From assembly GCA_046070625.1 (NCBI GenBank), contig JBJTMR010000061.1:570-64569 (forward strand): a stretch of DNA of 64,000 nucleotides, given 5' to 3'. Position numbers and translations under genes: made by a program. The stretch's first letter is position 1. The number at the start of each line of letters is the position of its first letter. Below are positions 39,429-64,000 of the stretch, one piece after another. The notes beneath the pieces are model-generated. The model made no database searches, had not been told where the DNA came from, and saw only the letters and a list, made by a program, of their open reading frames with translations. The stretch is from Bdellovibrio sp. Its GTDB lineage: Bacteria; Bdellovibrionota; Bdellovibrionia; Bdellovibrionales; Bdellovibrionaceae.

Positions 39429-41171
39429 CTATTGAGCAATCTTTCTCACCTTCATATTTCCTTCAACCAGGTCTGATAACCGAATAGAACGACGATCTAA
39501 TTCCGCTTCAATCTGCTGGCAGATCGTACGGCGAACCTGCGCGGTTAATTTGCGGGGCGGGATAACAACCATGTCCGCCAAATCTCTTTCGACAATCATC
39601 GCCTTTTTCTCTGGCAAACTAGAAAGAGCATACGTAAAGAAGACTGCTGGAGTTCTAAAGAATGCCGCATAAAGGGCTTCTACCTCAAGACCACCCAAAA
39701 CTTCACCCACTATATCCAGAGGAGTAATTTTTAAATCATCAAAGGTCAAAATAGATCTGCGTACGCGCTCTAGTTCCTCTGGATTTTCATTGGCAAACAA
39801 GGCCAACATGTCCATTTCCTCTTCCGGTGTCATGCCACGGATAACTCGAGCCAATACCGTCGCGCCTTGAATTTTTGGTTCGGGCTTTACACGCATTTCC
39901 ATCATTCGTTGATTGAATGACTGGATGACCATCTTCACGACGTCATGAGGAAGCTTTTCGATGCGTGAAAGTTCGCTCATAACACGCACCTTTTTTTCAC
40001 CTTCCATTGTAGCAAGGATACCGGCAGTCACTTCAGCTGGTGCATGCAAACAAAAGATTGCAATATTGCGCGCGCTTTCTTTGTCTAAGATTTGCTGGCG
40101 CTCATCTTCACGCATTTTTAAGACAAAGCTAAACGGATTTTGTTCATCTTCAGTCATTTCATGTTCAATGTAAGCCGCAAGTATAGCGCGATAAGTTTCT
40201 CGCACACCGGTTTCAATCTGTGCGGTCGTCGGATCACCCTGACGGTCTTTAACCGTACGACCCATCTTTGCCCACGCCATCGCTGGAATTTCCGTAAATG
40301 CCTGTTTAGCAATATCCCAGCCCAAGAAATCCATCATATAAGTGGCATTTTCGGCGGACTTTTCCAGACAATACTCTGCCATCGCACGAGATGCCATCTG
40401 AGGATACCTAGCTGCAATTTGCACCACATGTTGACGAACGGAGTCCAAATCTAAATCCCAAATTGGCGGTTTCTCCGGTTCAGGAATCACTGGAGAAGCG
40501 GCCGCTGCAACGGTCGGCACAGGTTCTTCTTCTTTTACTTCAGGTTTCGGTTCCTGATGACGATAATCGTGATTTTCTTTAAACTCTTTCTTAGGATCCT
40601 GAGCTCGTGCACGTCTCCACACAGCGAACATCAATCCCGCAAGAGCAAGCAACGACAAGATCACTACTAAAGTCCAAGTCTTCCACGTAAGCTCGGGCAG
40701 CTTTTTGGGAGCTTCTTCCAGCTTTGGGTCTGATGGCAATTCAATCCGACGAACGACCACAGCATCTCCAGCATTTGCGTCTAAATGTAATTTAGACGTC
40801 AGAAGGTCTCTAATGACCTTCTCTACCTCTGGAGAAACATTCCGCGACAGAACGACACTAATATCTGTTTTTGCCTTCATTTCATGAAGCTTATTGGCCG
40901 CCTGAGGGGCCACAGGAACGTCGCCCATCATCGGCATACCTGGAAGATATTGAACTTCTGCTTCATCATGAAATTCTTTAAGCTTTTTCTCGTCACGGTC
41001 CAATTCTACCGAAACAACCAAAGTATAATCCGTTGGACGCAAAATAGTGTTCAGAACAGCCCGGGCCCGAATTTCATAAAGGCTTTCCAAGGATCCCATT
41101 TCTTCAATATATTGTGCCTTGACGGACAGTGTGGAAAAAACAAGTCCTAAAACTATTAAGGTTTTTTTCAT
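39429..41171 (-). CDS. FliF(RBM3)-TM-FliG(M/C) fusion protein
   Basis: Cleavable signal; LESLYEIRARAVLNTIL...VVSVELD and ISVVLS...IRDLLTSKLHLDANAGDAVVV match the FliF ring domain; one TM; IAIFCLHAP, GATVLARVI, ENPEELERVRRSILTFDDL and SSLPEKKAMIVERDL match FliG middle and C domains. Confidence 0.8.
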   Translation of the reverse strand: MKKTLIVLGLVFSTLSVKAQYIEEMGSLESLYEIRARAVLNTILRPTDYTLVVSVELDRDEKKLKEFHDEAEVQYLPGMPMMGDVPVAPQAANKLHEMKAKTDISVVLSRNVSPEVEKVIRDLLTSKLHLDANAGDAVVVRRIELPSDPKLEEAPKKLPELTWKTWTLVVILSLLALAGLMFAVWRRARAQDPKKEFKENHDYRHQEPKPEVKEEEPVPTVAAAASPVIPEPEKPPIWDLDLDSVRQHVVQIAARYPQMASRAMAEYCLEKSAENATYMMDFLGWDIAKQAFTEIPAMAWAKMGRTVKDRQGDPTTAQIETGVRETYRAILAAYIEHEMTEDEQNPFSFVLKMREDERQQILDKESARNIAIFCLHAPAEVTAGILATMEGEKKVRVMSELSRIEKLPHDVVKMVIQSFNQRMMEMRVKPEPKIQGATVLARVIRGMTPEEEMDMLALFANENPEELERVRRSILTFDDLKITPLDIVGEVLGGLEVEALYAAFFRTPAVFFTYALSSLPEKKAMIVERDLADMVVIPPRKLTAQVRRTICQQIEAELDRRSIRLSDLVEGNMKVRKIAQ

Positions 41172-42124
41172 CGCACTACTCCAGAACTTAATATAGCCTG
41201 CGCCATATCTTTAATTTGAGGATATTGAGACTCTTTACTAATTCGAATTACTTCCGCACGAAACTCTTCCACAGAAGACAATTCACGAACGCCGACCAAA
41301 AATGCCTCTTCGTTAGACTCTCCTGATTTTTTAGCCAATCCACCTAGATACTTTTTAAGATCCCCTTTAACCATGCCTCGGTTAATGACCAGTTGCTTAA
41401 ATATCAAAGGCCTAAATTTTTCGTTATAAGAATCATAGGATTTATAGATTTCATTCCAAAAATCAGAAGCGACTCGAAGATCACGCATCTGACTGATTAA
41501 CAAAACGGCTTCATAGGGACCTGTTTTAGAACGAATTTTCTCGTGAACAATTTTGCGTGCCTTTTCGGGAAAAGGGTTCAATCGAACTAATGTCTCCGCG
41601 ACGATGTCCTTTTGGTTTCCGGGCTGCGCTGATTTTTCAAAATTTAACAAGTGATTCGTTGCCTTAGTGGACAATGAATCAAATTTTAATAAAACTTTTG
41701 ATGCATAACTCAAAATCTGAGCTTCTTCACCTAGAACCGGTTTCTCGCGCTTCGCAGTCATGAAGTCCGCAATTTGCTCCTGCAACTGATTCAAATGTTC
41801 TTTTTCTTCTGGTTTCCATTCAGGCTTTGCCACATCCAAAACATAGATGCTGGCTTGAAAGAAATTTCGATTTTCACTTAGAGATTTGCTCAACCCAAAG
41901 AATCCTGACAGGGCGGCAAAGTTTTTTTCTTTCCAGGCTTTCCCAGTTGGTGAAGTCAGATGAGTACTCACTGTTAACCCATGAGCCTTTTTAAGGTCCG
42001 CCAACACATCGGCACCTTCAGATATTTTTGCTGAGTGACTCGTTTTTTTATAAAACAAATAACTACCGCTAACTATCGCCGTTAAAAATACAACTCCTGA
42101 TATTATGACAATCTTCTTATTCAT
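41168..42124 (-). CDS. Membrane-anchored helical protein, unknown function
   Basis: N-terminal TM, helical (HEAT-like) body; ATGA overlap with the FliF-FliG fusion. Confidence 0.75.
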   Translation of the reverse strand: MNKKIVIISGVVFLTAIVSGSYLFYKKTSHSAKISEGADVLADLKKAHGLTVSTHLTSPTGKAWKEKNFAALSGFFGLSKSLSENRNFFQASIYVLDVAKPEWKPEEKEHLNQLQEQIADFMTAKREKPVLGEEAQILSYASKVLLKFDSLSTKATNHLLNFEKSAQPGNQKDIVAETLVRLNPFPEKARKIVHEKIRSKTGPYEAVLLISQMRDLRVASDFWNEIYKSYDSYNEKFRPLIFKQLVINRGMVKGDLKKYLGGLAKKSGESNEEAFLVGVRELSSVEEFRAEVIRISKESQYPQIKDMAQAILSSGVVR

Positions 42125-42127
42125 GTA

Positions 42128-42712
42128 TTACTCGAATCCCACGAAACGGACCCCCGCAAAGAGGGTGATAAAAGTATACTGCACGCCATCTTCCGCCGTC
42201 CCTGCAGCGGTAAGGCTGGAACCCATTGCAACCTGTCCTATCAAAAGCATATTGGACATCATCGGAATCTCAACCCCGCCTCGAAGGTTAAGATCAACAA
42301 GCGAAGCATTAAAGTCTTTGACTGCCAAATTAGATAACCCCAGATTGGCCGCCACAAATGGTGTAGGCCGCCATACCTTTGCTTGAGTTCGGCTGTCTAA
42401 AATGGTGCGAAGACCATTGGTACCGAAAAGGTAATACCGCGCTCCCAGAGCAATCCGTGTAAACGGCATCTGCATTCCTTCGGCCTCCGTCATCTCCATA
42501 AAAGACAGAGTAAAAGCGGTGTTGATAGAAGGACTATTGACACTGTAGTTCACTTCTAGAGTCGTAGGTGACTCTATCGTTTTTGAAGATGAGTCCCTAG
42601 CAAAGGCATACTTTAATGACGTCATACCTAAGCTCACATCCCAATCGGATGTCAAATAAGCCCAAGCAGGCGACGACATTAAAAGCGCTATCACTAAAAC
42701 CCAAGCCTTCAT
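42128..42712 (-). CDS. Small outer-membrane beta-barrel candidate
   Basis: Signal peptide (AWA|YL), amphipathic strands (ALGARYYL, PFVAANLG, LRGGVEIP), aromatic near C-terminus. Confidence 0.7.
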   Translation of the reverse strand: MKAWVLVIALLMSSPAWAYLTSDWDVSLGMTSLKYAFARDSSSKTIESPTTLEVNYSVNSPSINTAFTLSFMEMTEAEGMQMPFTRIALGARYYLFGTNGLRTILDSRTQAKVWRPTPFVAANLGLSNLAVKDFNASLVDLNLRGGVEIPMMSNMLLIGQVAMGSSLTAAGTAEDGVQYTFITLFAGVRFVGFE

Positions 42713-43605
42713 TAACGAACAACCTTTTTATCTGGGTTACGTTTGTCGATCTCAATCGTTGATGCCGGATATCTCATCTCGGCTCCCGATTGTGGAAGCG
42801 GAGCCATTCCCAGACGTTTGTAAACGTCAGATAGATACTGGTAAGCCACTTTGTTGTAAGGATCGATCTTCAAACATCTCTCCCAAGCTACCTTCGCTCC
42901 CTGGAAGTCTTTCTGCAAATATTTTACAGAGCCCTTTAAGAGCCAGGCATTGTTGGAGTACTCATCCATTGTAATTGCCTTATCAATTTGCTCCAGAGCC
43001 TGCGGATAGTTTCCTTTCATGATGGCTTGCTGACCTTGAAAGATAAGCCCCACCACTTTTTCACTACGATCCCGATCTGTTTGCGGCATTCCCCCAGATA
43101 AACGTGGAGAGAACAAAGCATCCTTGTAAAAGGACGAAGTATTCTCTAGTAATGCCACCCGCAATTTTAGCTCAGAAAGTTCCGCCAAAAGATCATCCAT
43201 TTTTTTGTCTTCAGGCTTCTTTTTATCCTCGGGTTTTTGTTGAGGATCTTGCTTTTTCTGATCATCGTTTTTCGCTAACTCTTCGGCCTTTTTTTCTTCA
43301 TCAGACAAAGGGTCGAGGCGCGCCTGTACCGCAATACTTTCCCCTTCATTAACCTTCACCATGACTTCTTTTGTACGATAGTTTTGTTTTTCAAAAATTA
43401 GAAAGAAAACATCGCCCAGCTTAGACTCTTCTTGTACGTTCAGAGGAGCAATACCCAAAAGCTTTTTTTCGTTACTCTGCATATCTTTGATGTAGACTTT
43501 TGATCCAGTCGGATAAGACTTGATTGAGTACTTCCCGGCACAAGCTGAGATAAATACTGGAGAAAGAGCAAGGCACAACATTTTCAGTTGTCGTGTCAGA
43601 AACAT
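42712..43605 (-). CDS. PEGA-domain plus TPR lipoprotein
   Basis: Start moved to ATG 43605 (GGAGG RBS); lipobox FISAC; YSIKSYPTGSKVYI...LGIAPL PEGA-like; coiled coil; TPRs (YPQALEQIDKAI, AKVAWERCLKIDPYN). Confidence 0.8.
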   Translation of the reverse strand: MFLTRQLKMLCLALSPVFISACAGKYSIKSYPTGSKVYIKDMQSNEKKLLGIAPLNVQEESKLGDVFFLIFEKQNYRTKEVMVKVNEGESIAVQARLDPLSDEEKKAEELAKNDDQKKQDPQQKPEDKKKPEDKKMDDLLAELSELKLRVALLENTSSFYKDALFSPRLSGGMPQTDRDRSEKVVGLIFQGQQAIMKGNYPQALEQIDKAITMDEYSNNAWLLKGSVKYLQKDFQGAKVAWERCLKIDPYNKVAYQYLSDVYKRLGMAPLPQSGAEMRYPASTIEIDKRNPDKKVVR

Positions 43606-43691
43606 TTCCATTATCCTCCATGATATATGGGCGTCGCATTCTGCTTCCCCATATTCATTTTCCCAAGTATGAGAGGAAAAAAGCATTGCTT

Positions 43692-44306
43692 ATGAGACAT
43701 ATCCTATCCTTAGTCCTGTTATTAATGTTCTGTGATGTTTCGCGTGCCAACCTTCAGGCACCAGTCTTAAGAACTAAGCTTTCTATGTACAACACGACGG
43801 TGACCGCAGGCGAGCTGGTCCAGGAGCAAGCTCTTGGCTCTCTGATGACGTTTCAGCCCTCACTTCTTTGGGACATTCCCTCGATGAGCGCACGCGTAGG
43901 GGTGCACTATATTATCGATATTAATAGCAAATATGGGGCTACTCCTATCTCAGGCATAGGTTTAAGTGGATATTACTATCTCAAAGGTTTGTCTTCGGTT
44001 TATGAAGTTACTCCGGATGAGGTCTTAACTCAAAAGTCGCGTCCAGGCTTGTTTACCTTCGCAAGCTTCACTCCGGTTAATTTTAATCTAAATAAAATGG
44101 ATCAAGCCGATCCGAATCAGTCATTTTCTTTTAGTGCTCTGGTATATGAATTTATTCTAGGTCTAGGATATGAATATCCTTTAAAACCGAATGCTCTTCT
44201 GGCTTTTGAACTTTCCCAGAGAGAAGGCTCCTCATCTTCCGGAGACAAAAATGTTCGGTACTCCGGCATGGGCTTCTCTCTGGTATTTACGACTTCTTAC
44301 TATTGA
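43692..44306 (+). CDS. Small outer-membrane beta-barrel candidate
   Basis: Start moved to MRHILSL; signal peptide (SRA|NL); amphipathic strands; ends TTSYY. Confidence 0.7.
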   Translation: MRHILSLVLLLMFCDVSRANLQAPVLRTKLSMYNTTVTAGELVQEQALGSLMTFQPSLLWDIPSMSARVGVHYIIDINSKYGATPISGIGLSGYYYLKGLSSVYEVTPDEVLTQKSRPGLFTFASFTPVNFNLNKMDQADPNQSFSFSALVYEFILGLGYEYPLKPNALLAFELSQREGSSSSGDKNVRYSGMGFSLVFTTSYY

Positions 44307-45247
44307 GCTTTCTCTTCGTACTGCTTGGCTTTCGTTTCAAGAGCTTCAATTTTCTTTTCTAAGTTCTGTAATTGTTGCTCTTTACGTTTTTGCTCAGCCT
44401 GTTCACGGTACTTTCTTTGAGCTTCCTCAAAACGAGCTTTCGCGAGCTTCATCTTATCTTGCAGTTCCGCCTCTTTTTGTTGGCGTTCCACTTCTTCTTT
44501 ATTGAGTTGTTTTTTAAACTGTTGCTGTTGCAGACGGTATGCCGCCTCCGGATCCATCATCTTTACTGCAATCATCACACGACGATTTACAGCTTTGTTG
44601 GTCGGTAGATCCTCGCCCTTGGCGTCTTTCTCTGGAGCAATTGGCTGAGAAGATCCATATCCCACTGCTGACAGCATTTTCGATTCAAGACCACTTTCCT
44701 CAAGATACCGAACCACAGAGCTTGCGCGCAATGATGACAACTCCCAATTTGATTTGATCAAGCTATTTTGCATACGATCGCCGTCCGTGTGTCCTTCAAC
44801 TGAAATCTTTTCCACACCGGGAACAGATCTTAAAGCTGCAACGACCTTGCGCATGCCGGATTTAGCTTCTTCTCGCAATTCAGTCGCGCCAGAGGCAAAT
44901 AGAACTTCTCCATCAAATTTTAAAAGAATCGTGTCGTCAGATCCCTTGGAAACTTCGACGCCTTTTAAATCACCAGATCCCAACAGAGTTGTTTTTAGCT
45001 TCTGTTCAGCCAAAACAATTGTGCTAGTCTCTTTAATTGTACCACCGAAATATTGAGCGACTTCTTTCCGAACCAAATCGAATTTTGTGTTATCAAATCT
45101 TGATAGAGAATACATCAAAACGAAAAACCCAAAAAGTAAGGTCATCATGTCCGCATAACTGACGAGCCAATTGGATTCGTCATGAGAATGAGATCCGTGA
45201 TCGTCATGCTCCTCGTGATGCTTGCTGCGTTTACTTGGTGCCCCCAT
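44300..45247 (-). CDS. motB: MotB-family stator subunit with C-terminal coiled-coil extension
   Basis: WLVSYADMMTLL with the proton-accepting Asp; OmpA domain VEGHTD, SNWELSSLRA, VGYG, NRRV. Confidence 0.93.
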   Translation of the reverse strand: MGAPSKRSKHHEEHDDHGSHSHDESNWLVSYADMMTLLFGFFVLMYSLSRFDNTKFDLVRKEVAQYFGGTIKETSTIVLAEQKLKTTLLGSGDLKGVEVSKGSDDTILLKFDGEVLFASGATELREEAKSGMRKVVAALRSVPGVEKISVEGHTDGDRMQNSLIKSNWELSSLRASSVVRYLEESGLESKMLSAVGYGSSQPIAPEKDAKGEDLPTNKAVNRRVMIAVKMMDPEAAYRLQQQQFKKQLNKEEVERQQKEAELQDKMKLAKARFEEAQRKYREQAEQKRKEQQLQNLEKKIEALETKAKQYEEKAQ

Positions 45248-46048
45248 TTAGGCCGCCTTTTTTGTCGCTGGCATTTCGTTGTTACGTTGACCTGGTGGCA
45301 AGAAAGATTTTAGATATTCACGAATAAAAATGGGATGTTTTTTCTCATGAACTAGAAGAACACCTTCCTTAATAATCTCTCGCAAGGTCATATCTGCCTG
45401 AGATACGCTGATCAACTTTTCGCTGATTGGAATCAAAATAAGATTGGCCAACAACAAACCGTAGAATGTCGCAACGAGAGCCGTCGCCATGGCCGGACCG
45501 ATACGATCTTGGGCCCCTGGTTCACCCAATGTCTGAAGCAACGAAATCATCCCCAAAGTTGCCCCCAAAAGACCGAATGCCGGGGGAAAACGGGATAGCG
45601 TCTGCCACACTTTTATTTCCTCGCCATCACGCTTTCTTTTACCACGAACGGCGTTAGACAGTACCTCATCTAGTTCTTCATAATTAAAACCATAATCAAC
45701 TAAGAGCTGAATACCATCTTTTAAAAATGGATGATCCGACGGTTTCAAAGCACTTTGAACTGCTTTAGGATCTTTCCTATAGGCCTCAGAAAGTTCGACA
45801 ATCTTTTCAATTGTATCCAAATAGTTAATCGCTCTTTCACGACCTAGATATTTTCGAGCAATGATTTTCAGCGCTGTTCCTAGACTTTTGAAATTGAAGC
45901 TCATCAAGGCAACGGTAAGCGTTCCGCCCACCACCAGCATCAATCCATGTACGTCCGCAAACACCTTTGGATTTTTTGCGCTGTCGAGAATTGCAAAGCC
46001 GGCAATCCCTGCCGCCGCTAATAGTCCTAATAAACCTGCAAAATTCAT
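45248..46048 (-). CDS. motA: MotA-family stator subunit
   Basis: LVVGGT, HPFLKDGIQLLVD, PPAFGLLGATLGMI, IGPAMATALVATFYG, IPISEKL. Confidence 0.93.
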   Translation of the reverse strand: MNFAGLLGLLAAAGIAGFAILDSAKNPKVFADVHGLMLVVGGTLTVALMSFNFKSLGTALKIIARKYLGRERAINYLDTIEKIVELSEAYRKDPKAVQSALKPSDHPFLKDGIQLLVDYGFNYEELDEVLSNAVRGKRKRDGEEIKVWQTLSRFPPAFGLLGATLGMISLLQTLGEPGAQDRIGPAMATALVATFYGLLLANLILIPISEKLISVSQADMTLREIIKEGVLLVHEKKHPIFIREYLKSFLPPGQRNNEMPATKKAA

Positions 46049-47379: not shown

Positions 47380-47400
47380 AGGACTCTCCTCTCTGGTCGC

Positions 47401-49563: not shown

Positions 49564-49575
49564 TTCACACCATCA

Positions 49576-50499: not shown

Positions 50500-51251
50500 C
50501 GTGGCAGCATTTCTTTCACACATCTTATGGGTATGAAAATAGGAACCCCCGTTGAAGAAGAAACCTTAATGTATTCTCCAATACGACGTCCAAAAACAAA
50601 TTTTGCTTTCTGGAATTTACCAATTACGTTGGCCGTTTCATCTGGCGCCATCAAACCAGTACAATTTTGCACAAAAGTCCATCGACCCGCTGGGCGAAGT
50701 TCATTTATCGTTGCTGGATTCGGCCTTGCTGGTGCTGTGACTTCGTCTTCTAGGGCTTTCAAAGACATTTCGTCGCGTTTCAATTCCTTTTTACTTTTCT
50801 CAATATCAGCACGAAGTGCATCGCTATCGTCAGTTTTTTTATTGAACTTCGCTAATAGATCTTGATATCGCTTTTGCACTCTTTTTCTGTTGTTCTGAAT
50901 CTCTGCGAGTTCGGCCTTTAAAAACTCCTGATCCTTTTGCAAAGATTCTTGCGCAATTTTCAAATCTTCAATTTGTCGGCGCTTCGCTCGAATATCGCGT
51001 TCGGTATCTTCTTTGTTCAGCTCGTACTCTTGCTTAAATCTCACGGCGGCGGCTTTGGCTTCTTCATAGCGCTGGCTTTCTTCAAATTCATCTTTTTGGG
51101 CCTGAATCAAAGCTCCCTCAGGATAAATGCTATTTACCGAGGTCTGAGCAGAACGAGCTGTGGCTGCATTCAAAATAACAAATATCCCAAAGACTAATCT
51201 CCTTAGACACGGATTTGCGAAAATTCGTAACCATATCAGTCGAGATTTCAA
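50496..51251 (-). CDS. Secreted coiled-coil protein with small C-terminal beta (SH3-like) domain
   Basis: Signal-like N-terminus, about 130 aa coiled coil, Pro linker, Cys-bracketed beta domain. Confidence 0.7.
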   Translation of the reverse strand: MKSRLIWLRIFANPCLRRLVFGIFVILNAATARSAQTSVNSIYPEGALIQAQKDEFEESQRYEEAKAAAVRFKQEYELNKEDTERDIRAKRRQIEDLKIAQESLQKDQEFLKAELAEIQNNRKRVQKRYQDLLAKFNKKTDDSDALRADIEKSKKELKRDEMSLKALEDEVTAPARPNPATINELRPAGRWTFVQNCTGLMAPDETANVIGKFQKAKFVFGRRIGEYIKVSSSTGVPIFIPIRCVKEMLPR

Positions 51252-51389: not shown

Positions 51390-52622
51390 TTACTGAGAGT
51401 CACACTCTAACATCGTATAGTTCGTCTGCCCATTTTTCGGAGCAACTAACAAATGTCTATTGCCTGGTAAAACAACCCAGAAGCCTTTTTTCGCGAAGCT
51501 CAAATTTGACGTTTCGTCATCGACCTCAAAACTTTGCTTATTCCCGTCTGCCGATACTTTAGATAAAATATATTTATCAAAAAACAAATGCTGCTTACGA
51601 TATTCAGCGACCCAATAGTTAGCACTTTGTTTTTTCTCTAAGGAATAGTCAAATCGGAAGGATACTGGTTTTGCTGCCGACACGGGCTTTGTCGGACGAT
51701 TGTTTTTCAAATCATCCAGCGAAATCAAATTCCAAGACTCGCTACGATCTAGCCATCCACTAGAACGAAAGCCAATAACTGTGGAATTTCCTAATATGAA
51801 GTCAGAAAAAGGCTCGGATCGAACTGGTAGCTGTAACGGTGACAATTTAATTTGATCCTTTGCCACTTCATACAAACTTAAAGCAGCTGAGTCCCCGGAA
51901 GAAAAGCCTAATAGCCCCTCCTGCACCCGAACTCTGGCTTTGCGATTTTGATTTAGATGTCCGCAATCGCCAACATTTAACATGTTACCCGGCTCCACCG
52001 TCATCATTAGATCAGCAGACTTAGAAGCACCCTTAGGAATGTAATCCAATAGACCTTTCAGCTTGTAAAAGCCAATCTGTCCAAGCCCGTTCCAAAAAAC
52101 CATGTAGTCATCATTCAGACGCTGCAGCGAAAGGTCGTCTCCCCAAGTACCCGTACATAGTCCCCAGGAGTTCCTGGCGAATATTTTATCGTTCAATACT
52201 TGTAACGGGATTCTTTTACCAGTGTCTTCTTTAAGAATTGACCAATCATCAAACGAGGCTTCCATTTCATAAGAATGCTTTTCAGCGGATCGTAAAGAAT
52301 TTTCCTGACGATTCAAAAGTTCTCCATAAGGAGTCATGTCTGCTGAAAATCCAACTTTGCCCACGATAAAACTATTTTTATTAAAATCCACTCCAGCAGC
52401 GATGTACTGTCCCTGAGCATTCTTGTACAGATGAGTTATCATTGGAACTCTATCTTGTCCCAGCTTTAATTCACCCCTATTTTTGACTCGACATTGCAGT
52501 ACCTTTTCTGACTCTGGAGGAACATTTTCAAAAATCGTCACAAGGATCAATATCAAACTTAGGAATACAGCCAGTAAGATGGGACCTTTAATATAAAGAG
52601 GAAGCTTTTTTATCTGATTCAT
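51390..52622 (-). CDS. Membrane-anchored beta-rich protein, unknown function
   Basis: N-terminal TM, repeated short beta strands (propeller-like); overlaps the VWA gene. Confidence 0.7.
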   Translation of the reverse strand: MNQIKKLPLYIKGPILLAVFLSLILILVTIFENVPPESEKVLQCRVKNRGELKLGQDRVPMITHLYKNAQGQYIAAGVDFNKNSFIVGKVGFSADMTPYGELLNRQENSLRSAEKHSYEMEASFDDWSILKEDTGKRIPLQVLNDKIFARNSWGLCTGTWGDDLSLQRLNDDYMVFWNGLGQIGFYKLKGLLDYIPKGASKSADLMMTVEPGNMLNVGDCGHLNQNRKARVRVQEGLLGFSSGDSAALSLYEVAKDQIKLSPLQLPVRSEPFSDFILGNSTVIGFRSSGWLDRSESWNLISLDDLKNNRPTKPVSAAKPVSFRFDYSLEKKQSANYWVAEYRKQHLFFDKYILSKVSADGNKQSFEVDDETSNLSFAKKGFWVVLPGNRHLLVAPKNGQTNYTMLECDSQ

Positions 52623-54037
52623 TTTGTTTGATTCTTTTTACAGTTAAGTTTAACAACTTCTTTATTGGAACCCATGATAACGTCTTTGAATATACACCCT
52701 TCGTCAACTTTGATCTCATAGACACCCTTTCCTAAAATCAGGGGAAAGTTTGTCACATGATTTCCTATAGTTTGGCCGCGGCTATTCTGAACGTAAATGC
52801 CCTTTACGACGGGATCCTCCACAAATGCAACCCCGGCTTCTTCAATATTATATTCATACTGGCCTTCTGGCACCACAAGATAGTCGTTGATTGTTTTCTC
52901 ATAGAAAGGATCTCGATAAAATCTGAGACTCCATCTGCCCGGTGGCAGCGCCGTTGCTTGATCCGAAGTAAATCGCTTAACAACTTTCTTATTCTTATTC
53001 AAAAGTTCAATTTTCATCAGGCCATCAATGAAGTGAGCAGTGAAGGTGCCGCTGCCTTTCACGCGCAAAGTGATCTTCTTTTTTGGAGGTATGATGAACT
53101 CTTTGAAGCGATATTTAGGTTTTAAATTTACAACGGCAAAGTAAGTTCCGGGTGGGACTTCAATTCCGTAAGAAGCCTGAAATTTTCTATAAATTTCATT
53201 AGGGCTCTCTTTGCGGAATAAAAAAACTGTAGCCTTGGGATCCGGACTATCGACAAAAAGATTTTTATTCGGGTTGAGTTCTTTATCCATATCGCTAAAA
53301 AGATCATCCAACTGCTGTTCATCGTCGGCCTGGTGAACATCCCCTATACACTTTAACTTTTCCAAAGTGTCTTGTTGATCCTTAAGTCCAAAAGCTATCA
53401 CAAAGAACTTCAAGTCCACATTTTTCTTTTTTACTTCGTTCACAAATTTGCACGGATCTTTTCCGCAGGTTTCCTCGCCATCAGTAAATACGACGACTCT
53501 TTTAGGTCCATCATAGTTTTCGAGATCTTTGTAAGCATCTTTTAGACCATCAAACAAGGGCGTCATTCCTACGGGATCCATCGTTTTCACTGTGCCTTCG
53601 ATAAGACCCAATTTTGAATTGCCTGGTTGAATAGCCAAAAAATTGTCTTTACAATCTTTTTTCCGACGGGAACCAATGACGCGCATACCGCTGGAGCTCT
53701 TTTCCGTCCATTGCGAAACAAGATAGCGCGACAAGATTTTCTTCATGACATAAATCTTGGTTTTTTTTTGACTCAGAATTTGCCCCATAGAGCCAGAACT
53801 ATCGATAATATATTCTACCAAGGGAGTTGGCGTATCCGCCATGTTCTCTACATCAGCGGTCCCCTCTGTTGATTCTTTTACTTTAGTGGGATCAAAATCC
53901 ATTTTATCTAGCAGATCCTTAGCCTGCACTTGGACAGAGCCCGCAGCAGGTTTCATATCCGGATCAACCTGTCCCCAAACAGTCATCGTCCACACAAAAA
54001 AGATACTGAAATACAGAAATATCTGTTTCATAATCAC
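52619..54037 (-). CDS. Secreted von Willebrand factor A (VWA) domain protein
   Basis: Signal peptide; MIDAS DSSGS, GMTPL, VVFTDGEETCG, FVIAFG; C-terminal beta-sandwich repeats. Confidence 0.88.
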   Translation of the reverse strand: MIMKQIFLYFSIFFVWTMTVWGQVDPDMKPAAGSVQVQAKDLLDKMDFDPTKVKESTEGTADVENMADTPTPLVEYIIDSSGSMGQILSQKKTKIYVMKKILSRYLVSQWTEKSSSGMRVIGSRRKKDCKDNFLAIQPGNSKLGLIEGTVKTMDPVGMTPLFDGLKDAYKDLENYDGPKRVVVFTDGEETCGKDPCKFVNEVKKKNVDLKFFVIAFGLKDQQDTLEKLKCIGDVHQADDEQQLDDLFSDMDKELNPNKNLFVDSPDPKATVFLFRKESPNEIYRKFQASYGIEVPPGTYFAVVNLKPKYRFKEFIIPPKKKITLRVKGSGTFTAHFIDGLMKIELLNKNKKVVKRFTSDQATALPPGRWSLRFYRDPFYEKTINDYLVVPEGQYEYNIEEAGVAFVEDPVVKGIYVQNSRGQTIGNHVTNFPLILGKGVYEIKVDEGCIFKDVIMGSNKEVVKLNCKKNQTK

Positions 54038-55224
54038 CGCGGTTTCATCAATTTACTAATAAAATCGTCTAGACGTAATCCTAACATAATGCGAATCGCG
54101 CTTTGGCTTTCGCTATAGCTTTGTCCTTGGGGAATATTATAGACACCGTCGGCAGCATTCTTAACTTCACCACTAAATGAAACTTGGGATTGAGACATGG
54201 TGTAACTAACGTCTAAAGAATATCTCTTAAACCAGGGAATAGCTTTAACATAAAAAAGCATCGTTGCGCCGGCTTTTAGTTCATACATGCTGCCAGAAGA
54301 ACTCGCTCCCCGTTGGACAAGACTGTCGCTCACGGAGTAGGTCGGAAAATAAGAAACATCCACATAAATTCGATTGAAGCTCCAGCCAAAGGCATTGCTG
54401 GTCTGATAGATATTATCTCCGAAGAGATAGTGAAAATTTACTCCCAAACCTAACCCTGAAGCGTTCGAAGACACCACGTATTCATCATCATTCGTAGTTT
54501 TAAACTCTGAATTGAGCGAAATCAGTTTCAGGGTCGGTCGCAATTCCTTCCAAATGGGAAGCAATCGATAGTGAAGGGCTATACGCGTTTCTTTGGCGGT
54601 GGTTGCCTGCTCTTGGCGATTGTATGACTTTAAAGGGATATTCCCACCGGACGTTTGGTATTCAATCCCATAGCGCCACAGAAAGTCCACGTACCACAAG
54701 AAATGTGTCTCGACGTATTTAAAATCAAAAACTTTATATTTATTGGCATTATTTGGAGACTGACTTTCAAAATGGCCGTTATAAGGACCCATCTCGAAAA
54801 TCATATATCCCGGTTCATAGGGATCCGGTGTTTCTTCGGGAACTTTATACTCATTTTCTGGCACCGGGGCTTCTGACGGCAAGGGCTTCAGCCGCGACAA
54901 GCTTACTACGAGATCTTTTGCCTTAGGCATCTTGGTGATAGAGGGACCGTCCAGAATCGCAAGCAATTCATTATTCTGGACACTCTCTACACTTCCGCGA
55001 GCGATAACTTCGACATCTTCTCCAATGACACGCAAAACGACAATAAGCTCCCCCGCTCGCACCCGATTTGTTCGGGGCAGAATCAAAACATCGTCATTCA
55101 TTCGACGAATAGGGACAGCATTTTTTTTGATGAAATCTATGTTAATCCAAGAACTAGCAAAAGCACTTTCGCCGGCAAGGAACATCCATGTTGCCATCAT
55201 TAATTGTAAGAGAATCCTTCTCAT
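54034..55224 (-). CDS. Outer-membrane beta-barrel candidate with N-terminal periplasmic domain
   Basis: Signal peptide (AFA|SS), N-terminal beta domain, Pro linker, about 12 amphipathic strands ending IMLGLRL. Confidence 0.65.
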   Translation of the reverse strand: MRRILLQLMMATWMFLAGESAFASSWINIDFIKKNAVPIRRMNDDVLILPRTNRVRAGELIVVLRVIGEDVEVIARGSVESVQNNELLAILDGPSITKMPKAKDLVVSLSRLKPLPSEAPVPENEYKVPEETPDPYEPGYMIFEMGPYNGHFESQSPNNANKYKVFDFKYVETHFLWYVDFLWRYGIEYQTSGGNIPLKSYNRQEQATTAKETRIALHYRLLPIWKELRPTLKLISLNSEFKTTNDDEYVVSSNASGLGLGVNFHYLFGDNIYQTSNAFGWSFNRIYVDVSYFPTYSVSDSLVQRGASSSGSMYELKAGATMLFYVKAIPWFKRYSLDVSYTMSQSQVSFSGEVKNAADGVYNIPQGQSYSESQSAIRIMLGLRLDDFISKLMKPR

Positions 55225-58200: not shown

Positions 58201-61200
58201 CTTGTACGAAAAAGTTCCCGAAAGATCCAAAGCATTCGGCTGATAACGAATATAACATTTGGAACTTTTAAAATAAGAACGATAGGCAGCCAATGGCAAA
58301 AACGCAGGAGCCCCATAACTACAACTATTGCAGGCAGAAGCATATGCCCCTGGCTCGCGACATAGTTTCAATCCCCCAGCTGGAGGAGTTCCCTGAGCCG
58401 CTAAAACAAATGAATACGAATCACGACGATCTTTCGGGTACCAGTATTCATGCTGCGTATAAAGAGGGTCAGGAATTGTTGATGCCACATCGGAAACTTC
58501 AATCAGCCCGTCGGTCAACTCCTGGCCTTCATAAGCATGAACCATCGTTTCGCTAATGATTTTTGAAGCGTTATTTAAACGCGCCAAGTTTAACGTTATG
58601 GACCGAGACGTCTCTCCAGGGACTAACGGTGCAGTATTCGGTATACCAAAATAATTTATCCGGCGTACCCAGACACCCGTCACCGAAGCTGTTCCCGCCG
58701 CAAAGTTCACATCATACAATGTTTCATACTGAGTACGTATACTTGTCGTGATCCTGGTTCCCTTTGGAAGAGTAAACGCAGGGGTCGCCGTTGGACGAGT
58801 GAAATTCACCATACCTTCAAGGTCGAAGGATGTCGGATTTGTTACTTTCAAGCCCGTGACACCGGCAGGTAAAGGATCCATAAAGGCATTGATCGTATTC
58901 ACCGCAGGTTTATCGCCGTCCAACGCTCGAATATTGTACTTACGTGACAGTATTGAAAAAGTCGGTTCCAGAGCTAAGGAAGTCACATTATAATTCGTCA
59001 AACCAATGACCGATTCGGACACAAAACTGAAGCCCGCTGGCTCCGCTGGTGCCGGCGCTGCCCAAGTAATCGTCAACGGTGTCGCTGCTGGAGTCACCGC
59101 AAATCTGCGCCACACAGGAATAGTCACCGAAGACGTATTGGCTGGAATGGTCACATCTGCAGGAACCTCAAATAAAACATCTGGTACAAACGGCGTACCA
59201 GAAAAAGAAGCCGTTTTAATTGTACAACCCGCTGGAATCGTTCCTATTGCAGTGGCCGGGGTACGCGTGAAGGTGACAGAGCCTTGGTCATCAATCGGCA
59301 GACTGTTCGTCACTGTATATGTTCCACCTGTTGTCGCACAGGTTCCCAGGACCGTCACTTTACCCGCGGGAACTACGGTATCCAACGCTACTACAGGGAT
59401 ATAAATCAAATAATCCTGGGGCAAAATCGTCACATCCATAGCCGTGGCAAATCGTTGATAAAAGCCTGCGGCCGCCGAAGTTAAGATAGTTCCCTTTTTT
59501 ATTGTCGTCGAAGCTGTGGGCCGAGGGAATGTCGTGGCTGTGCCGCGAGTGAATCGAACAGAGCCAGCTCCATTCCAAAAAATGCTGTTATAGGAACTCC
59601 GTATACACAAGGAGCCAGAATTCTTCCGAAAGGTGGGCTCATCTTGAGCAATATTCTGTTTCAGAACGAAGGGCTGCCCCGTCGCGCAGTCTCCAACCAA
59701 TTTAAGTACATCAAAGCTATTGTTGGCAGCGAAACCAAAGGCTTCGAGCCATAGCCCCCCTCCGTCTTTATCTGACGTTGAAACAGTTGAAGAGGCTTGG
59801 AATATATTGGGGTTCAGGCCCGCAACAATATTAGGCGTCGTTAAGCATGGTTTGGTATTTCGGTCTTGTGCGGAAAAATTCAAAGTTAGGGGCGTTGAAA
59901 AACCACCATGATTATCTTTAAGAGTGATAATAAAGGTTCCCGTCTTAGCCGTATGAGTAGGTTTCCAATCATAGGTTACACGCAAACGATCCGCAAGCTG
60001 CTCCTTGGAAACCAAGGTCATATTAGCATTCAGCGTTCCCCCAGTTGTATATGAAATCTCATCTGGTGGAGTCGGAGCAGGAGTGTCTAAGTTATCAGGA
60101 TCCTGGAAGTCCAAATAGAATCGATAAGGTGGAACACCGTCCGGAACTTCTAAAGCACAATAGTCATATTCATAGGGGTCATTATAAATGACCTTCACTC
60201 CACTAGTCGTCCCGCCCACAAGAATCGGAGCACGATTTGTATCAGCAACCAACACATTGAGAGTCAAAAGCCCAATCCCAAAGGACTCATCCATTAACTC
60301 CAAAGAAATACTGCCTGCTTTTTTAAAAGCATCGCCATTATTCGGCGTCCAACGAACTTCAACTTCATTGGCATCATTAATTGTCGCTGGCGCAAGCTGT
60401 CCATTAATACTCAGTTGACTCGAGTCGGTTATCTCCGCAATTTTTGCAGAAACTTTTCCACCATCAGGATCAGAATAGTGAATCTTACATACCCATTCCT
60501 TCGACTCTACAGCATTCAAGTCGCAGTTATGGGAAAATACCGGGATACGATTGACGTTATCCACGAAGACATCCCAACTAACTCGAGTAACCTTTCCGCC
60601 ATCAGACAGAATCACACTCATCTGATAGGGTGCAACCCGTCCTTGATCATAATTAGGAGTCCATTTAACAGTGCCATTTTCACTGTCGACCAACTGTCCC
60701 TCAAACATCCACGCATAAAATACTTGGTCACCATCCGGGTCTAACGCCAGAGCCTTCATTAGCAGATTCGAATTTTCATTCACTCGTTGATCCACCAGAG
60801 GCGTGGTTGCTCTATCGTCCAATGCTGGCGGGCGATTCTGAATTCCAAAGGGGTACGGAGCAGATAAAATATCTCCGTCAGAATTGAAGTTGAAATTAAC
60901 ATCAAACTTTTTAAGCAATGTTAAAAAGGCAACGTCATTTGATAGACCGTTACGTACGAAGCGATAAAGAAGATCTGGATTAAAATCTTCTTCAATGCCG
61001 AACATCGCCATTCGCTCTTTACGAAAAGCTGTGACCGCATTCGTAATTTCGCTCACTTCACTTTGGGTAAAAGTCGCAAGTGGTCGATTCCCGTAATTAG
61101 CTAATAGATTATATACCAGCGTAGAATCCAGAGTAACCGGAATAACAACATCTGAAAACACGATCGCATACCATGGAGTCGATCGATATTCCATAATCAG

Positions 61201-61491
61201 TTTGGCAACAGTCGCGCCAGAGGGATTAAGTCCTTTAGGCAAAATCCGACGCATTAAATTCGGCTTTTCATCGGTGGTTAAATCCAATAAATTTTTTGCT
61301 CTAATTTCTTCTTGCAGGAACTGCGCTAGATAAAGGGAATATCTACTGGTACTAACTTTATTAGCTTGGGTTAGTTCCAATTGAATCAAACCGCCAGCAG
61401 GAATGACGATTTCACTAGATGTGCCCTTATCTTCCAGGCAACCGGAAAATAAGAACACTGATATAATTAATGCCAATATCCTAATCAGCAT
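55225..61491 (-). CDS. Giant surface lipoprotein: Ig/cadherin-like repeats, baseplate-J-like repeats, C-terminal beta-propeller
   Basis: Lipobox LFSGC (Cys18); repeated NxxP domain starts (NRPP, NRIP, NRAP, NHPP, NQIP); IDSSTGVITWVP putative-Ig motif; three G.V.FTR...I..GT repeats; propeller blades at C-terminus. Confidence 0.85.
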   Translation of the reverse strand: MLIRILALIISVFLFSGCLEDKGTSSEIVIPAGGLIQLELTQANKVSTSRYSLYLAQFLQEEIRAKNLLDLTTDEKPNLMRRILPKGLNPSGATVAKLIMEYRSTPWYAIVFSDVVIPVTLDSTLVYNLLANYGNRPLATFTQSEVSEITNAVTAFRKERMAMFGIEEDFNPDLLYRFVRNGLSNDVAFLTLLKKFDVNFNFNSDGDILSAPYPFGIQNRPPALDDRATTPLVDQRVNENSNLLMKALALDPDGDQVFYAWMFEGQLVDSENGTVKWTPNYDQGRVAPYQMSVILSDGGKVTRVSWDVFVDNVNRIPVFSHNCDLNAVESKEWVCKIHYSDPDGGKVSAKIAEITDSSQLSINGQLAPATINDANEVEVRWTPNNGDAFKKAGSISLELMDESFGIGLLTLNVLVADTNRAPILVGGTTSGVKVIYNDPYEYDYCALEVPDGVPPYRFYLDFQDPDNLDTPAPTPPDEISYTTGGTLNANMTLVSKEQLADRLRVTYDWKPTHTAKTGTFIITLKDNHGGFSTPLTLNFSAQDRNTKPCLTTPNIVAGLNPNIFQASSTVSTSDKDGGGLWLEAFGFAANNSFDVLKLVGDCATGQPFVLKQNIAQDEPTFRKNSGSLCIRSSYNSIFWNGAGSVRFTRGTATTFPRPTASTTIKKGTILTSAAAGFYQRFATAMDVTILPQDYLIYIPVVALDTVVPAGKVTVLGTCATTGGTYTVTNSLPIDDQGSVTFTRTPATAIGTIPAGCTIKTASFSGTPFVPDVLFEVPADVTIPANTSSVTIPVWRRFAVTPAATPLTITWAAPAPAEPAGFSFVSESVIGLTNYNVTSLALEPTFSILSRKYNIRALDGDKPAVNTINAFMDPLPAGVTGLKVTNPTSFDLEGMVNFTRPTATPAFTLPKGTRITTSIRTQYETLYDVNFAAGTASVTGVWVRRINYFGIPNTAPLVPGETSRSITLNLARLNNASKIISETMVHAYEGQELTDGLIEVSDVASTIPDPLYTQHEYWYPKDRRDSYSFVLAAQGTPPAGGLKLCREPGAYASACNSCSYGAPAFLPLAAYRSYFKSSKCYIRYQPNALDLSGTFSYKLTTYENLNSGCQTGAVSRYCDSSAYFVNNTYYSALVYTTNLTLVVHEVNHPPVLTNSSFTALTGGTGASTATPVVLGDYAEGTSSFYNFYVTDSNKGEELKNDNFEIQPQVYDLKTSTWRDRPAGLTVSIDRVDPLTVTSGTKTTARLTWNPTDADSKQFSGAAGLIVKIKVFDAKSSPDVSTSIYGYYKVRLINKNQIPTIATMDTDNKVKVFADTYVKKEFFLYDKDAFVPMGGTFATTLTACRDGNGVALQHPTLDTGSADPFICHATTATFPVELTTYDPAYDRNKNLTQCYSSGVLNADLAIPKFSPAGAPEVINGVLRQKYQMEWCPQRGQIGVFSAEIDVNDNGDVDRDGVALPSAISGTPLLLTVVAPVYLVSPRVSIMNVPTHHMIQTAASMNEQPFRYDVIVNNSQEHSLEYSLLSSPRECGVANGVCIDSSTGVITWVPNYSLDITPAGSPGSLIRVQVKDTVTGDVDSAHFYLKVQSALSPFEKTPVIDSSVPSGNNILVAEKSSVVLSVNASDPNPDDVLFYRWYVNGKISSDESSSFTFKPSDMDGSLDPDGNGPKKAGEFTIRVEVTDGNYVVSRSWDVKVLNTFLLGDSVFDLTTSRIESSPSITPTNVNWMGEIAYGQLVGNDNLDHLIIAGNYMSGSFQKHFLWDLLMVNGNIGKPNGTLVNPPWNFTEDLPWLTGTSTRRIAINPVGTGYDMLMTSTSARSGPFGLTTEALHIMNGDLTSLALASNNKCAGDCPLQLYTSPYYSDSRITTSMDSTYVFYAADAGNVLYYDYLAPSNPKTVYNFGTMKISGMTLNRSINRLYVTAQQTSPTVLHKIFVFDVTAALSGGIPSLVTSLNVFDGVVGHEDSKPSDILYDSTNNRVYALLSGTGGVVTFPDSGSTTPTVGSMEFIGVNQLNGSPFDVPGAGKRLVIRSQDRLLIGTMEGANQVFTVDLTTNTVYVSAVQNPITSIASYPSGQILLVSRSKGKVYKAK

Positions 61492-61516: not shown

Positions 61517-64000
61517 CTAGTATAACAAGAAGTATGTGCCGATTTTTACCCCAACAAGAGGACTGTAGCCTCCATGGAACTCGGTTGGAACCATGATATC
61601 CATTGTTCCATCCCCATTCACATCCCCCGTCGATGTGTTTGCAAAGAAGTACCTTGGCGCGGTGGTATCATCAGCACGCTTAATAATGTAAGGCTTCACA
61701 TGACCTGAAGAATCCGCTACGACCACGGAATCCGGGTAATCTGCTGCATGCAGCCCCGTTACAGATCCAAAGAATGCAACACCACGACCAAAACTAGAAT
61801 TCCCCAGAATTGGATCATCCCAGTATGGGGCTCCTAAAATGACGTCATCAAAGCCATCCCCATTTAGGTCACCTTTTTTTGTTCGTCCCGTCATAACAGT
61901 ATAACCGTTATAATCTGAAGCTGCCGTATCCCAAACATAGAAAGGCATGGGGGCAGGTTTCGATATGCCCGTCGTTTTGATACACTCTGGCATTGGCGAT
62001 AAGTTAATACTTGGATCAGCAAACTGAAACTGTTTGTTCATATTTCCGTAAAGAGAACTAATCCACATATCGGTCGCATTATCGTTGCCACACAATGGGC
62101 CATAGTACATATAAGCCAATCCTGCGGTCGGCAACGAGGCCAATGGCGTTTCGGTAGGAGCCGTGACGATAAGGTCCTCATAGCCGTCGTTGTTCACATC
62201 GCCTGCAGAAGCTACGCGCCAGCCAAAATTTCTAGAATTGGTGTCCCTATTAATTGGCGGCATCAAAGACCGCACCTGACCTGTGCCATCCAAATTTAAA
62301 GAAACCGAATTGCGACGCTGAAAAGCATCATTAGAAAGGCACTCTCCCGGATTGTAACTGGCATCGTAGTAATCTCTTTGATTTCCGGCGATCAATCCAT
62401 TGTTACTGCCTTTAAATAAGAAAATACGACCGTAGGCATTTCTTTTACGCACTGGATTCATAGGATCACTAAGATCATCCACGTCATAATAACAAGGAGT
62501 ATCTTCCCAGCCTGGGGCGGCCACAACAAGATCATCGATACCGTCGTGATCGTAATCGACAATAGCTATTGAGCTGCCAAAATTATGATAGTTGCGGTCA
62601 TATCCATGATCTACATTCTCGATAAAGGGATCATAAAGAAACTGCATTTTACAGTTTTTATTCGTGATGCCTGCAGACCCTGGACACGCTTTGTTCGTCG
62701 CGCCGGCGGCCTCAGAATTATATGCATCAACCATGTATGCTGAAGTTCCGGCTGGCAATACCAACGTTGTCGGCACATCCGGCTCGTTATCGCTCACCGC
62801 ATATCCCTTCGCCTTAGGTGTTTGCACACCAGACGTCGACCCATAATAAATCCACACCCGTCCGGCTCCCCAAGCTGGAGTACCGGATGAGCATCCACCG
62901 TCGATGGCCCCCGGAGAGCACTGCCAGCCCCCGTTCGCAACCACAGGCCCTGCCACTGTTCCACCATCCGGTGAAGCGCCAGGATTAAACCCTGTGGTTT
63001 TATTCATGATAAAGAAGGCCGTCGCATCAGGGTTCGAAATCACAAGGTCCGAAAGACCATCGCCATTGAAATCTCCATGCACAATAATTTCCCTACGAGT
63101 ATTAAAATTATTCGTTGCCGAAGTTCCGGTGAGATTGGCCATCGACGACCAACGCTTAGAGATTATCTGTGGATCACCATACGCCGGTATCCACTGTGGA
63201 TTACTTACGGCCTGTAGTCCCCCACGAGATCCATAATAAACAACAATTTGACCTGACGTACTTAGCCAATCTATAAATGCGACATCTGCAAACCCATCCC
63301 CATTAATGTCGCCAGCATCAAAGGCACGCGACGCCCATTCTTGCGACAGGTTTGTGGGTTTTGAAATCAACTGCGGCAAAACGATATCGTCCACCGTCAC
63401 ACCCTGTGCGGGATTTGCCGACGGATAACAGTAACTGGTATTGCCTTGGCCAGTTTTAAAGATACGATTCATATTTTCTAAACAAAACGAAGTGCTAATC
63501 AAGCCAATCTTCGAACCATAAAACACAACAGCATCAGTGATATTTGAAGCACTCGTTGGGGAAGGCCAAGAAATTTTTGCGACAGCGTCGGTATAGCCAT
63601 CGCGATTAATATCACCGACCAAACGAATACTTTCATATCCCGATTTCTGGGAACCTGCCAGAGATTCATAAATTGAAAAAGACGGTACTGAGTTCACCGC
63701 AGATAATGCCTGTCCATGACTGTTAAAACCATAAACAGCACCACCACCATTCTTTGTGGTTTTATCTAAAAATGCTCCGACCGCAACGTCATTCAAAGGT
63801 TTTACCCCGGCGAAATCTCCGTCAAAATTTCCAGCAGCAACGGATCGTCCGAAGTAATCGCTTGGTTTTCCATATGTATTATAGAACTTCAAAAAGTTTG
63901 TAGTAAGACCTGCATTTGCCAAGCTTGTAAATGCGTACACTGCTCCGGCATTGGTTCCTTTAGTTGTGTCCCCTACAGCTCCAATAATAACGTCTTTTAA
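61517..64000 (-). CDS. FG-GAP/integrin-alpha-like beta-propeller protein; truncated by the right window edge
   Basis: Frame is open from 64000 (LKDVIIGAVGDTTKGTNAGAVYAF); seven DxNxDG-type Ca-binding loops and FG-GAP motifs (YFGRSVA, NFGSSIA, NFGWRVA, VVAAPG, ILGAP). Confidence 0.9.
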   Translation of the reverse strand, partial: LKDVIIGAVGDTTKGTNAGAVYAFTSLANAGLTTNFLKFYNTYGKPSDYFGRSVAAGNFDGDFAGVKPLNDVAVGAFLDKTTKNGGGAVYGFNSHGQALSAVNSVPSFSIYESLAGSQKSGYESIRLVGDINRDGYTDAVAKISWPSPTSASNITDAVVFYGSKIGLISTSFCLENMNRIFKTGQGNTSYCYPSANPAQGVTVDDIVLPQLISKPTNLSQEWASRAFDAGDINGDGFADVAFIDWLSTSGQIVVYYGSRGGLQAVSNPQWIPAYGDPQIISKRWSSMANLTGTSATNNFNTRREIIVHGDFNGDGLSDLVISNPDATAFFIMNKTTGFNPGASPDGGTVAGPVVANGGWQCSPGAIDGGCSSGTPAWGAGRVWIYYGSTSGVQTPKAKGYAVSDNEPDVPTTLVLPAGTSAYMVDAYNSEAAGATNKACPGSAGITNKNCKMQFLYDPFIENVDHGYDRNYHNFGSSIAIVDYDHDGIDDLVVAAPGWEDTPCYYDVDDLSDPMNPVRKRNAYGRIFLFKGSNNGLIAGNQRDYYDASYNPGECLSNDAFQRRNSVSLNLDGTGQVRSLMPPINRDTNSRNFGWRVASAGDVNNDGYEDLIVTAPTETPLASLPTAGLAYMYYGPLCGNDNATDMWISSLYGNMNKQFQFADPSINLSPMPECIKTTGISKPAPMPFYVWDTAASDYNGYTVMTGRTKKGDLNGDGFDDVILGAPYWDDPILGNSSFGRGVAFFGSVTGLHAADYPDSVVVADSSGHVKPYIIKRADDTTAPRYFFANTSTGDVNGDGTMDIMVPTEFHGGYSPLVGVKIGTYFLLY

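Follow-up and report, generated by a model that had tools for sequence, protein, structure and literature searches.

Within a 64,000-nucleotide stretch of the Bdellovibrio sp. genome (assembly GCA_046070625.1, contig JBJTMR010000061.1, positions 570 to 64,569 of the forward strand; hereafter the window; G+C content 44.9%), a minus-strand gene encodes a giant protein of 2088 amino acids (aa) whose central part holds three tandem units similar to the small β-barrel of the baseplate wedge proteins of contractile phage tails. The open reading frame (ORF) begins with MLIRILALIISVFLFSGC and carries LFSG-C at residues 14–18; the lipobox pattern [LVA][STGAL][GS]C is kept in nearly all of 19 homologues. 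The first-pass annotation of this DNA had called the product a giant lipoprotein, and the conservation of the lipobox across the family bears this out: a lipoprotein signal that ends in a lipobox with an invariant cysteine is a sound prediction.

Full-length orthologues of 50–65% identity are present in seven Bdellovibrio genomes. An exhaustive HMMER (phmmer) scan of 1.84 billion representative proteins recovered 12 true representative clusters of ~2000–2130 aa, all of which align at the same position of the giant lipoprotein; two further entries (P0010 and P0013) turned out on inspection to be spurious low-complexity repeat proteins. A word-indexed homologue search returned nothing with a 410-aa segment of the protein and only a 189-aa fragment with a profile of the units, a meagre result that we attribute to the limit of the word index and to E-values scaled to 5.8 billion sequences. 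Conservation of the full-length ORF in more than 19 genomes rules out a coding artefact. Members of the family are labelled “hypothetical protein” in every source that names one, and our literature search found no paper on this gene family.

The three units are ~95–103 aa long, and a half-unit separates units 2 and 3 (Table 1). They carry, in order, GSVRFTR (aa 643–649, window 59545–59565), GSVTFTR (aa 737–743, window 59263–59283) and GMVNFTR (aa 893–899, window 58795–58815), and share the consensus G.V.F.R...TIP.G....T....F.T......G....PV.R....(V)TN. Smith–Waterman comparison between units against 300 shuffles gave z = 3.7 for units 1 and 2, 4.4 for units 1 and 3, and 7.5 for units 2 and 3, and all three units are in register in every protein of a 20-member family alignment (the 19 homologues are 22–65% identical); the tandem repeat is above chance level and conserved across the family. 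The half-unit consists of the last three strands alone (YNIRALDG, TINAF and LKVTNP), preceded by a linker of low model confidence; unit 3 is clear over its first two thirds and degenerate towards its C-terminus, where model confidence is low. A distant homologue (P0007) has a fourth complete unit after unit 3 (aa ~1000–1090), so members of the family differ in how many copies of the module they have.

The three repeats reported at first pass, together with all the peptide strings quoted for them, are found within this single ORF. Two points of that description require correction: the units lie on the minus strand, and unit 3 ends only at about aa 985 (window ~58537), past the position 58660 at which the repeats had been made to start. 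The segments that had been placed between the repeats (VPAGKVTVL and TVTNSLP, within aa 707–732, and PAVNTINAFMDPLPAGVTGLKVTNP, aa 862–886) are the C-terminal strands of the units rather than linkers, since the half-unit keeps precisely the last three strands. The description of the module as triplicated holds for the three complete units; it leaves out the additional half-unit and the four units of the one homologue.

At the domain level the units are similar to wedge barrels. The top Pfam match of the segment was Baseplate_J (E = 0.031, 14.0 bits), with unit 2 placed on profile positions 24–69; when 52 units were scanned singly, Baseplate_J was the sole Pfam family found on more than one of them (4 of 52; best E = 0.014), and Gp6_2nd (T4) was matched by one unit of the 52. 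Phmmer with the 410-aa segment found no match in the PDB. A profile of the 52 unit sequences, searched against 177,635 distinct PDB sequences, ranked the wedge protein (“baseplate component”) of phage 812 first (9euf_C, E = 0.0024) and “Baseplate protein gp47” second (9ki1_H, E = 0.091), both aligned at chain residues ~92–152; the remaining PDB matches had E > 2. In PHROGs, the whole protein matched one family, phrog_6 “baseplate wedge subunit” (E = 9e-4), at aa 895–938 in unit 3.

Direct comparison with Mu gp47 places the similarity in a single register. Hhalign of the unit alignment against a gp47 alignment (120 homologues collected, 111 aligned) gave a probability of 88.1%, P = 3e-6 and a score of 41.3, with unit columns 3–54 on gp47 86–132; the reversed template scored 15.8, and 30 column-shuffled templates reached a maximum of 19.5. 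With the whole 2067-column family profile, the top three alternatives were units 3, 2 and 1, all on gp47 80/87–136: aa 891–941 on gp47 87–133 for unit 3 (the best alternative), aa 728–791 on gp47 80–132 for unit 2, and aa 642–704 on gp47 87–136 for unit 1. The same comparison yielded nothing convincing between the rest of the giant lipoprotein and full-length gp47, and no alignment to gp47 1–80 or 180–360. In the reciprocal direction, a hidden Markov model (HMM) of the gp47 barrel gave its top rank, out of 311 six-frame ORFs in the window, to the giant ORF, with domain matches on units 2 and 3; the units of family members were matched in that same HMM register.

Structure prediction leads to the same family. 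An AlphaFold2 model of the three units (aa 632–1000; alignment of 13 sequences; mean predicted local distance difference test score (pLDDT) of 75) shows the units as all-β, with pLDDT values of 80–93 for unit 1, unit 2 (~85), the half-unit and the first two thirds of unit 3, and low values for the linker and the end of unit 3; wedge proteins are enriched among its weak Foldseek matches. For an AlphaFold2 model of a single unit (aa 641–735, pLDDT 76.9), ranks 1–14 of the PDB Foldseek list are all baseplates of contractile phages or extracellular contractile injection systems (eCIS), including 9euf_I/C, A-1(L), phiCD508, T4 gp6 (5iv5), KP1, Pa193 and AFP (6rao); the best is phage 812 gp116 (9euf_I, E = 3.6e-3, probability 1.00, TMq 0.56). 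Likewise, nearly all named matches in the top ~40 of the BFVD list are “Baseplate J-like”, “baseplate wedge” or “gp47 homolog” proteins (best E = 2.3e-3). The likeness to the β domain of baseplate J and wedge proteins that had been noticed at first pass is thus upheld by sequence profiles and single-unit Foldseek searches, which agree.

To our knowledge, the wedge barrel of the Baseplate J/gp6 type has so far been recorded almost solely in contractile tails, tailocins, eCIS and the baseplates of type VI secretion systems (T6SS). Pfam PF04865.19 covers Mu gp47 residues 67–325 (profile positions 2–255). P2 gpJ (L008) matches only positions 112–254 of the PF04865 profile, the C-terminal half, and so lacks the barrel, which Mu gp47 (L009) has; the barrel is therefore an optional, separable module of genuine wedge proteins. 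The wedge protein of phage 812 is composed of N-terminal helices, a wing, a trifurcation domain and a dimerisation domain, and its wing binds the hub and central spike in conformer A and the sheath initiator in conformer B (PMC13433997). Judging from the domain order and the matched residues, the barrel found by our unit profile would correspond to this wing. With Baseplate J, Mu gp47, T4 gp6 and 812 gp116 (PF04865, PHROG 6), the units share the small β-barrel fold detected by Foldseek and, in the same register, the motif G.V.F...IP.GT...F.T...V.V.A....N...L....V.N. They differ in their setting: the giant has three to four tandem barrels without the N-terminal helices, trifurcation and dimerisation domains; its barrels stand in a ~2100-aa lipoprotein encoded in a chromosomal, non-phage cluster; and its sequence stays under the Pfam cut-off. 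We regard the units as probable remote homologues of the wedge barrel. The fuller account, in which three tandem barrels and a half-domain are distant kin of the N-proximal barrel that is optional in wedges of the Baseplate J, Mu gp47 and T4 gp6 type, and now stand in a lipoprotein that is not a wedge protein, seems fairly likely as a whole.

The alternative that survives best is convergence or chance: the units could be generic small β-barrel or β-sandwich spacers of a surface protein, whose T/V/G-rich strands and “G.V.F...IP.GT” turn mimic the wedge barrel. A number of our results speak for this and against homology. The sequence-level scores are all weak, and every individual statistic is modest, none being conventionally decisive: the Baseplate_J score does not reach the Pfam gathering cut-off of 21.1 bits; in the reciprocal search, the match of the gp47-barrel HMM to the giant ORF is weak (E = 0.042); and the exhaustive phmmer scan of 1.84 billion proteins returned no baseplate protein. 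The units are rich in T, V, G, A and P, a biased composition that is typical of β-rich surface proteins and may inflate profile scores. The single-unit Foldseek superpositions are loose (TMq ~0.5–0.56, root-mean-square deviation ~5 Å over ~74 columns), and the last third of that model has a pLDDT of 51–60; the three-unit model had no Foldseek match at E ≤ 0.001 and listed CALX-beta domains among its weak matches, a failure that we ascribe to the difficulty of superposing a flexible multi-domain model. On the other hand, five independent libraries or methods converge on one family and one register (gp47 ~86–135, which equals Pfam profile positions ~24–69); the shuffled and reversed hhalign controls fall far under the real score; and the single-unit Foldseek top lists consist almost purely of wedge proteins at a probability of ~1.0, with unrelated folds at E > 1 only. 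On this evidence we consider convergence unlikely, and we infer that the units and the wedge barrels share a common ancestor.

The reading of the units as ordinary immunoglobulin (Ig)-, fibronectin- or cadherin-type repeats, as they occur elsewhere in the giant protein, is largely refuted, and we give it very little credence. Repeats of this type are indeed close at hand: aa ~225–302 match Big_9 (Pfam E = 5e-5, 24.5 bits, cut-off 23.6), with a Cadherin_5 match to the same region under its own cut-off, and the neighbouring genes encode fn3 and FG-GAP domains. Yet no Ig, fn3 or cadherin family of Pfam falls on the units, even at E ≤ 1, and no Ig-like structure stands among the leading Foldseek matches of the single unit in the PDB or BFVD. 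A Foldseek search had been proposed at first pass as the check on the wedge assignment; for the single-unit AlphaFold model, wedge proteins lead it, and Ig or fibronectin folds were not found.

Phage Baseplate J-like proteins of 900–1400 aa do exist (BFVD matches) and, outside this case, the domain family is confined to phages and contractile injection systems (CIS), but the idea that the giant is a CIS or prophage remnant or component, that is, a degenerate and hugely expanded wedge protein of an eCIS- or T6SS-like machine, is scarcely tenable, given that its likeness to gp47 is confined to the barrel, with the N-terminal helices, trifurcation and dimerisation parts absent, that no sheath, tube, gp25, spike or other phage family occurs in the window, that a lipoprotein signal is present, and that distant relatives keep FG-GAP, VWA and MotAB genes in synteny with it.

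The barrel is thus the only module that the giant lipoprotein shares with wedge proteins. Because its Pfam score lies below the cut-off, because the wedge helices, trifurcation and dimerisation parts are missing, and because there are no contractile-tail genes nearby, the giant lipoprotein is no Baseplate J protein and belongs to no injection system. The first-pass statement that no phage genes lie nearby stands for the whole window, which has neither phage nor CIS genes, and contractile-tail families (gp25-like, sheath, tube, spike or hub) are likewise missing from the flanks of the homologous loci. The distribution of the barrel, which is ubiquitous in contractile systems and limited to 12 representative clusters here, suggests that it may have been captured from a phage or CIS by the cell. 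What is new is a known virion domain in tandem and in a cellular setting; if our reading is true, tandem barrels in a conserved cellular lipoprotein would be a clear reuse of a virion or CIS assembly module in a bacterial envelope protein, and would open a first structural way into a family of predatory bacteria whose ~2100-aa members are labelled “hypothetical proteins”.

The Ig-like Big_9 region also has a weak NCBIfam match to a tandem-95 repeat. The C-terminal ~400 aa of the giant lipoprotein (aa ~1668–2088, window 55228–56490) weakly match a designed “Pizza” β-propeller in phmmer against the PDB (E = 0.025), the sole match there for the N-terminal, middle and C-terminal parts of the protein, and Pfam Lreu_0056_like at E = 0.069; these matches hint at a propeller-like C-terminal domain. 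The protein as a whole would be an extended, all-β, multi-domain and lipid-anchored envelope protein with the barrels at mid-molecule. Such a very long all-β multi-domain build, with a Big_9 domain, is that of giant surface proteins and adhesins made of tandem Ig-like, cadherin-like or Big repeats, and the neighbours with FG-GAP, fn3 and VWA domains are of types typical of adhesion proteins. The giant lipoprotein differs from these adhesins in that its mid-molecule repeats are wedge-barrel-like rather than Ig-like, and in that, as known here from its sequence, it is predicted to be lipid-anchored rather than secreted by a type I secretion system or as an autotransporter.

The giant lipoprotein gene belongs to a minus-strand cluster (Table 1) in the order FG-GAP giant, giant lipoprotein, 396-aa protein, VWA protein, an unassigned 410-aa protein, MotA, MotB, TPR protein, 194-aa protein, 318-aa protein and FliG-like protein.

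Table 1. Positions in the window of the giant lipoprotein gene, its parts and the surrounding cluster
Feature	Window position	Strand	Basis
Giant lipoprotein gene, 2088 aa	55225..61491	(-)	Single ORF containing all three units
Signal peptide and lipobox (MLIRILALIISVFLFSG followed by C, Cys18)	61438..61491	(-)	Read directly from sequence
Ig-like domain (Big_9 / cadherin-like), aa ~225–302	60586..60819	(-)	Pfam match
Wedge-wing-like barrel unit 1, aa 641–735	59287..59571	(-)	Complete, ends in TVTN; unit alignment
Wedge-wing-like barrel unit 2, aa 736–838	58978..59286	(-)	Pfam Baseplate_J match and hhalign
Half-unit, aa 839–891	58819..58977	(-)	Family alignment; three-unit model
Wedge-wing-like barrel unit 3, aa 892–985	58537..58818	(-)	PHROG 6 match and hhalign
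FG-GAP repeat protein, upstream neighbour, cut by window end	61517..63940	(-)	Pfam FG-GAP, E = 3.6e-37
396-aa conserved protein without known domain, then 472-aa VWA protein	52619..55224	(-)	Pfam VWA, E = 8.5e-8
MotA	45248–46048	(-)	Pfam
MotB with plug and OmpA domains	44300–45247	(-)	Pfam
TPR protein	42712–43686	(-)	Pfam
FliG-like protein, 580 aa	39429–41171	(-)	Pfam
Distal part of the cluster, including unassigned 194-aa and 318-aa proteins	39429..46048	(-)	Pfam, synteny

The FG-GAP reading frame upstream of the giant lipoprotein continues to the end of the window (61517–64000). Elsewhere its orthologues measure ~1750 aa, and a second FG-GAP/fn3 giant, ~1570 aa long, is encoded ahead of them (for example, at 56–9977 of the homologous locus L002); the FG-GAP/fn3 giant, the FG-GAP giant and the lipoprotein being consecutive, three genes together encode about 5400 aa of predicted envelope protein. 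All Bdellovibrio loci keep the order of the cluster, and the distant loci L010 and L013, at 28–30% identity, keep its essentials; the 396-aa and VWA genes are syntenic in all of these. Another distant relative (L012) has the three giants only, and motAB and the other genes are not adjacent to them. Searches of PADLOC, PHROGs and NCBIfam with the unassigned neighbouring ORFs returned coiled-coil noise only, and we found no paper on the FG-GAP/VWA/MotAB cluster of Bdellovibrio.

Between the 410-aa gene and motA, the minus strand of the window carries a 4.7-kb block of five ORFs (251, 315, 405, 314 and 246 aa; 46639–51251). None of the seven other Bdellovibrio genomes compared has this block, its G+C content is slightly raised (0.48–0.49) at 48–50 kb, and its ORFs match no Pfam, NCBIfam, PHROG or PADLOC family except for coiled-coil noise; it may be a strain-specific island.

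Given that the wing of phage wedges is a non-catalytic docking module, the three barrels could by analogy play a similar role. They might together make a rigid stretch at mid-molecule, a spacer for the Ig-like domains on its flanks and for the propeller-like region at the C-terminus, and might also present repeated docking surfaces to partner proteins; the likeliest partners would be the two FG-GAP/fn3 giants, which are always co-encoded, and the ~390-aa and VWA proteins, which usually are. A docking or spacer role is thus suggested by the phage case, and the proposal made at first pass, that the repeats serve as a stalk or scaffold module in an adhesin, is plausible. A link of the lipoprotein to adhesion, or to the neighbouring MotAB, may also be envisaged.

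The synteny with motA, motB and the FliG-like gene raises the possibility that the giant envelope proteins are functionally connected with an ion-driven stator. The closest parallel in context is the Agl-Glt gliding machinery of Myxococcus with its VWA adhesin CglB: the cluster resembles it in that an ion-driven motor gene pair of the MotA/ExbB family lies near genes for a VWA-domain protein and for large proteins of the envelope, in a predatory lineage that glides. This parallel is one of context only: the motor here is MotA with a MotB bearing plug and OmpA domains, which is flagellar-stator-like, instead of AglRQS; no Glt homologues were identified here; and the L012 relative keeps the three giants without adjacent MotAB. 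The complex might be an adhesin, a MotAB-coupled force-transmitting apparatus or a periplasmic scaffold, choices that we offer as a lead and not as a finding. In the most far-reaching version, the giants, the ~390-aa and VWA proteins, MotA and MotB, the TPR protein and the FliG-like protein would form an undescribed envelope machine of Bdellovibrionota coupled to the ion-motive force (an apparatus for gliding or for adhesion to prey, or else a scaffold in the periplasm for the motor of the sheathed flagellum), in which phage-derived barrels would act as docking joints that hold the giants together as in a baseplate; we think this speculative and unlikely. The gliding motor and the adhesins of Bdellovibrio are still unidentified according to a 2026 review (PMC13104615), which makes the cluster worth testing, and the barrels draw attention to a conserved and wholly uncharacterised set of genes comprising three giants together with VWA, MotAB and FliG-like proteins.

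The rest of the window consists of ordinary chromosomal genes, among them those for aspartyl-tRNA synthetase, a sigma-70 factor, histidine kinases, a secretin with an ATPase, and an O-antigen ligase. A 692-aa ORF without a Pfam family (24754–26832, minus strand) is overlapped by long ORFs on both strands (for example, 25051–25923 on the plus strand), a pattern typical of compositionally biased or repetitive coding sequence. The secretin (PF00263) is followed by a T2SSE-type ATPase at 29164–31577 on the plus strand, and the two genes probably belong to a Tad, type IV pilus-like or type II secretion locus.

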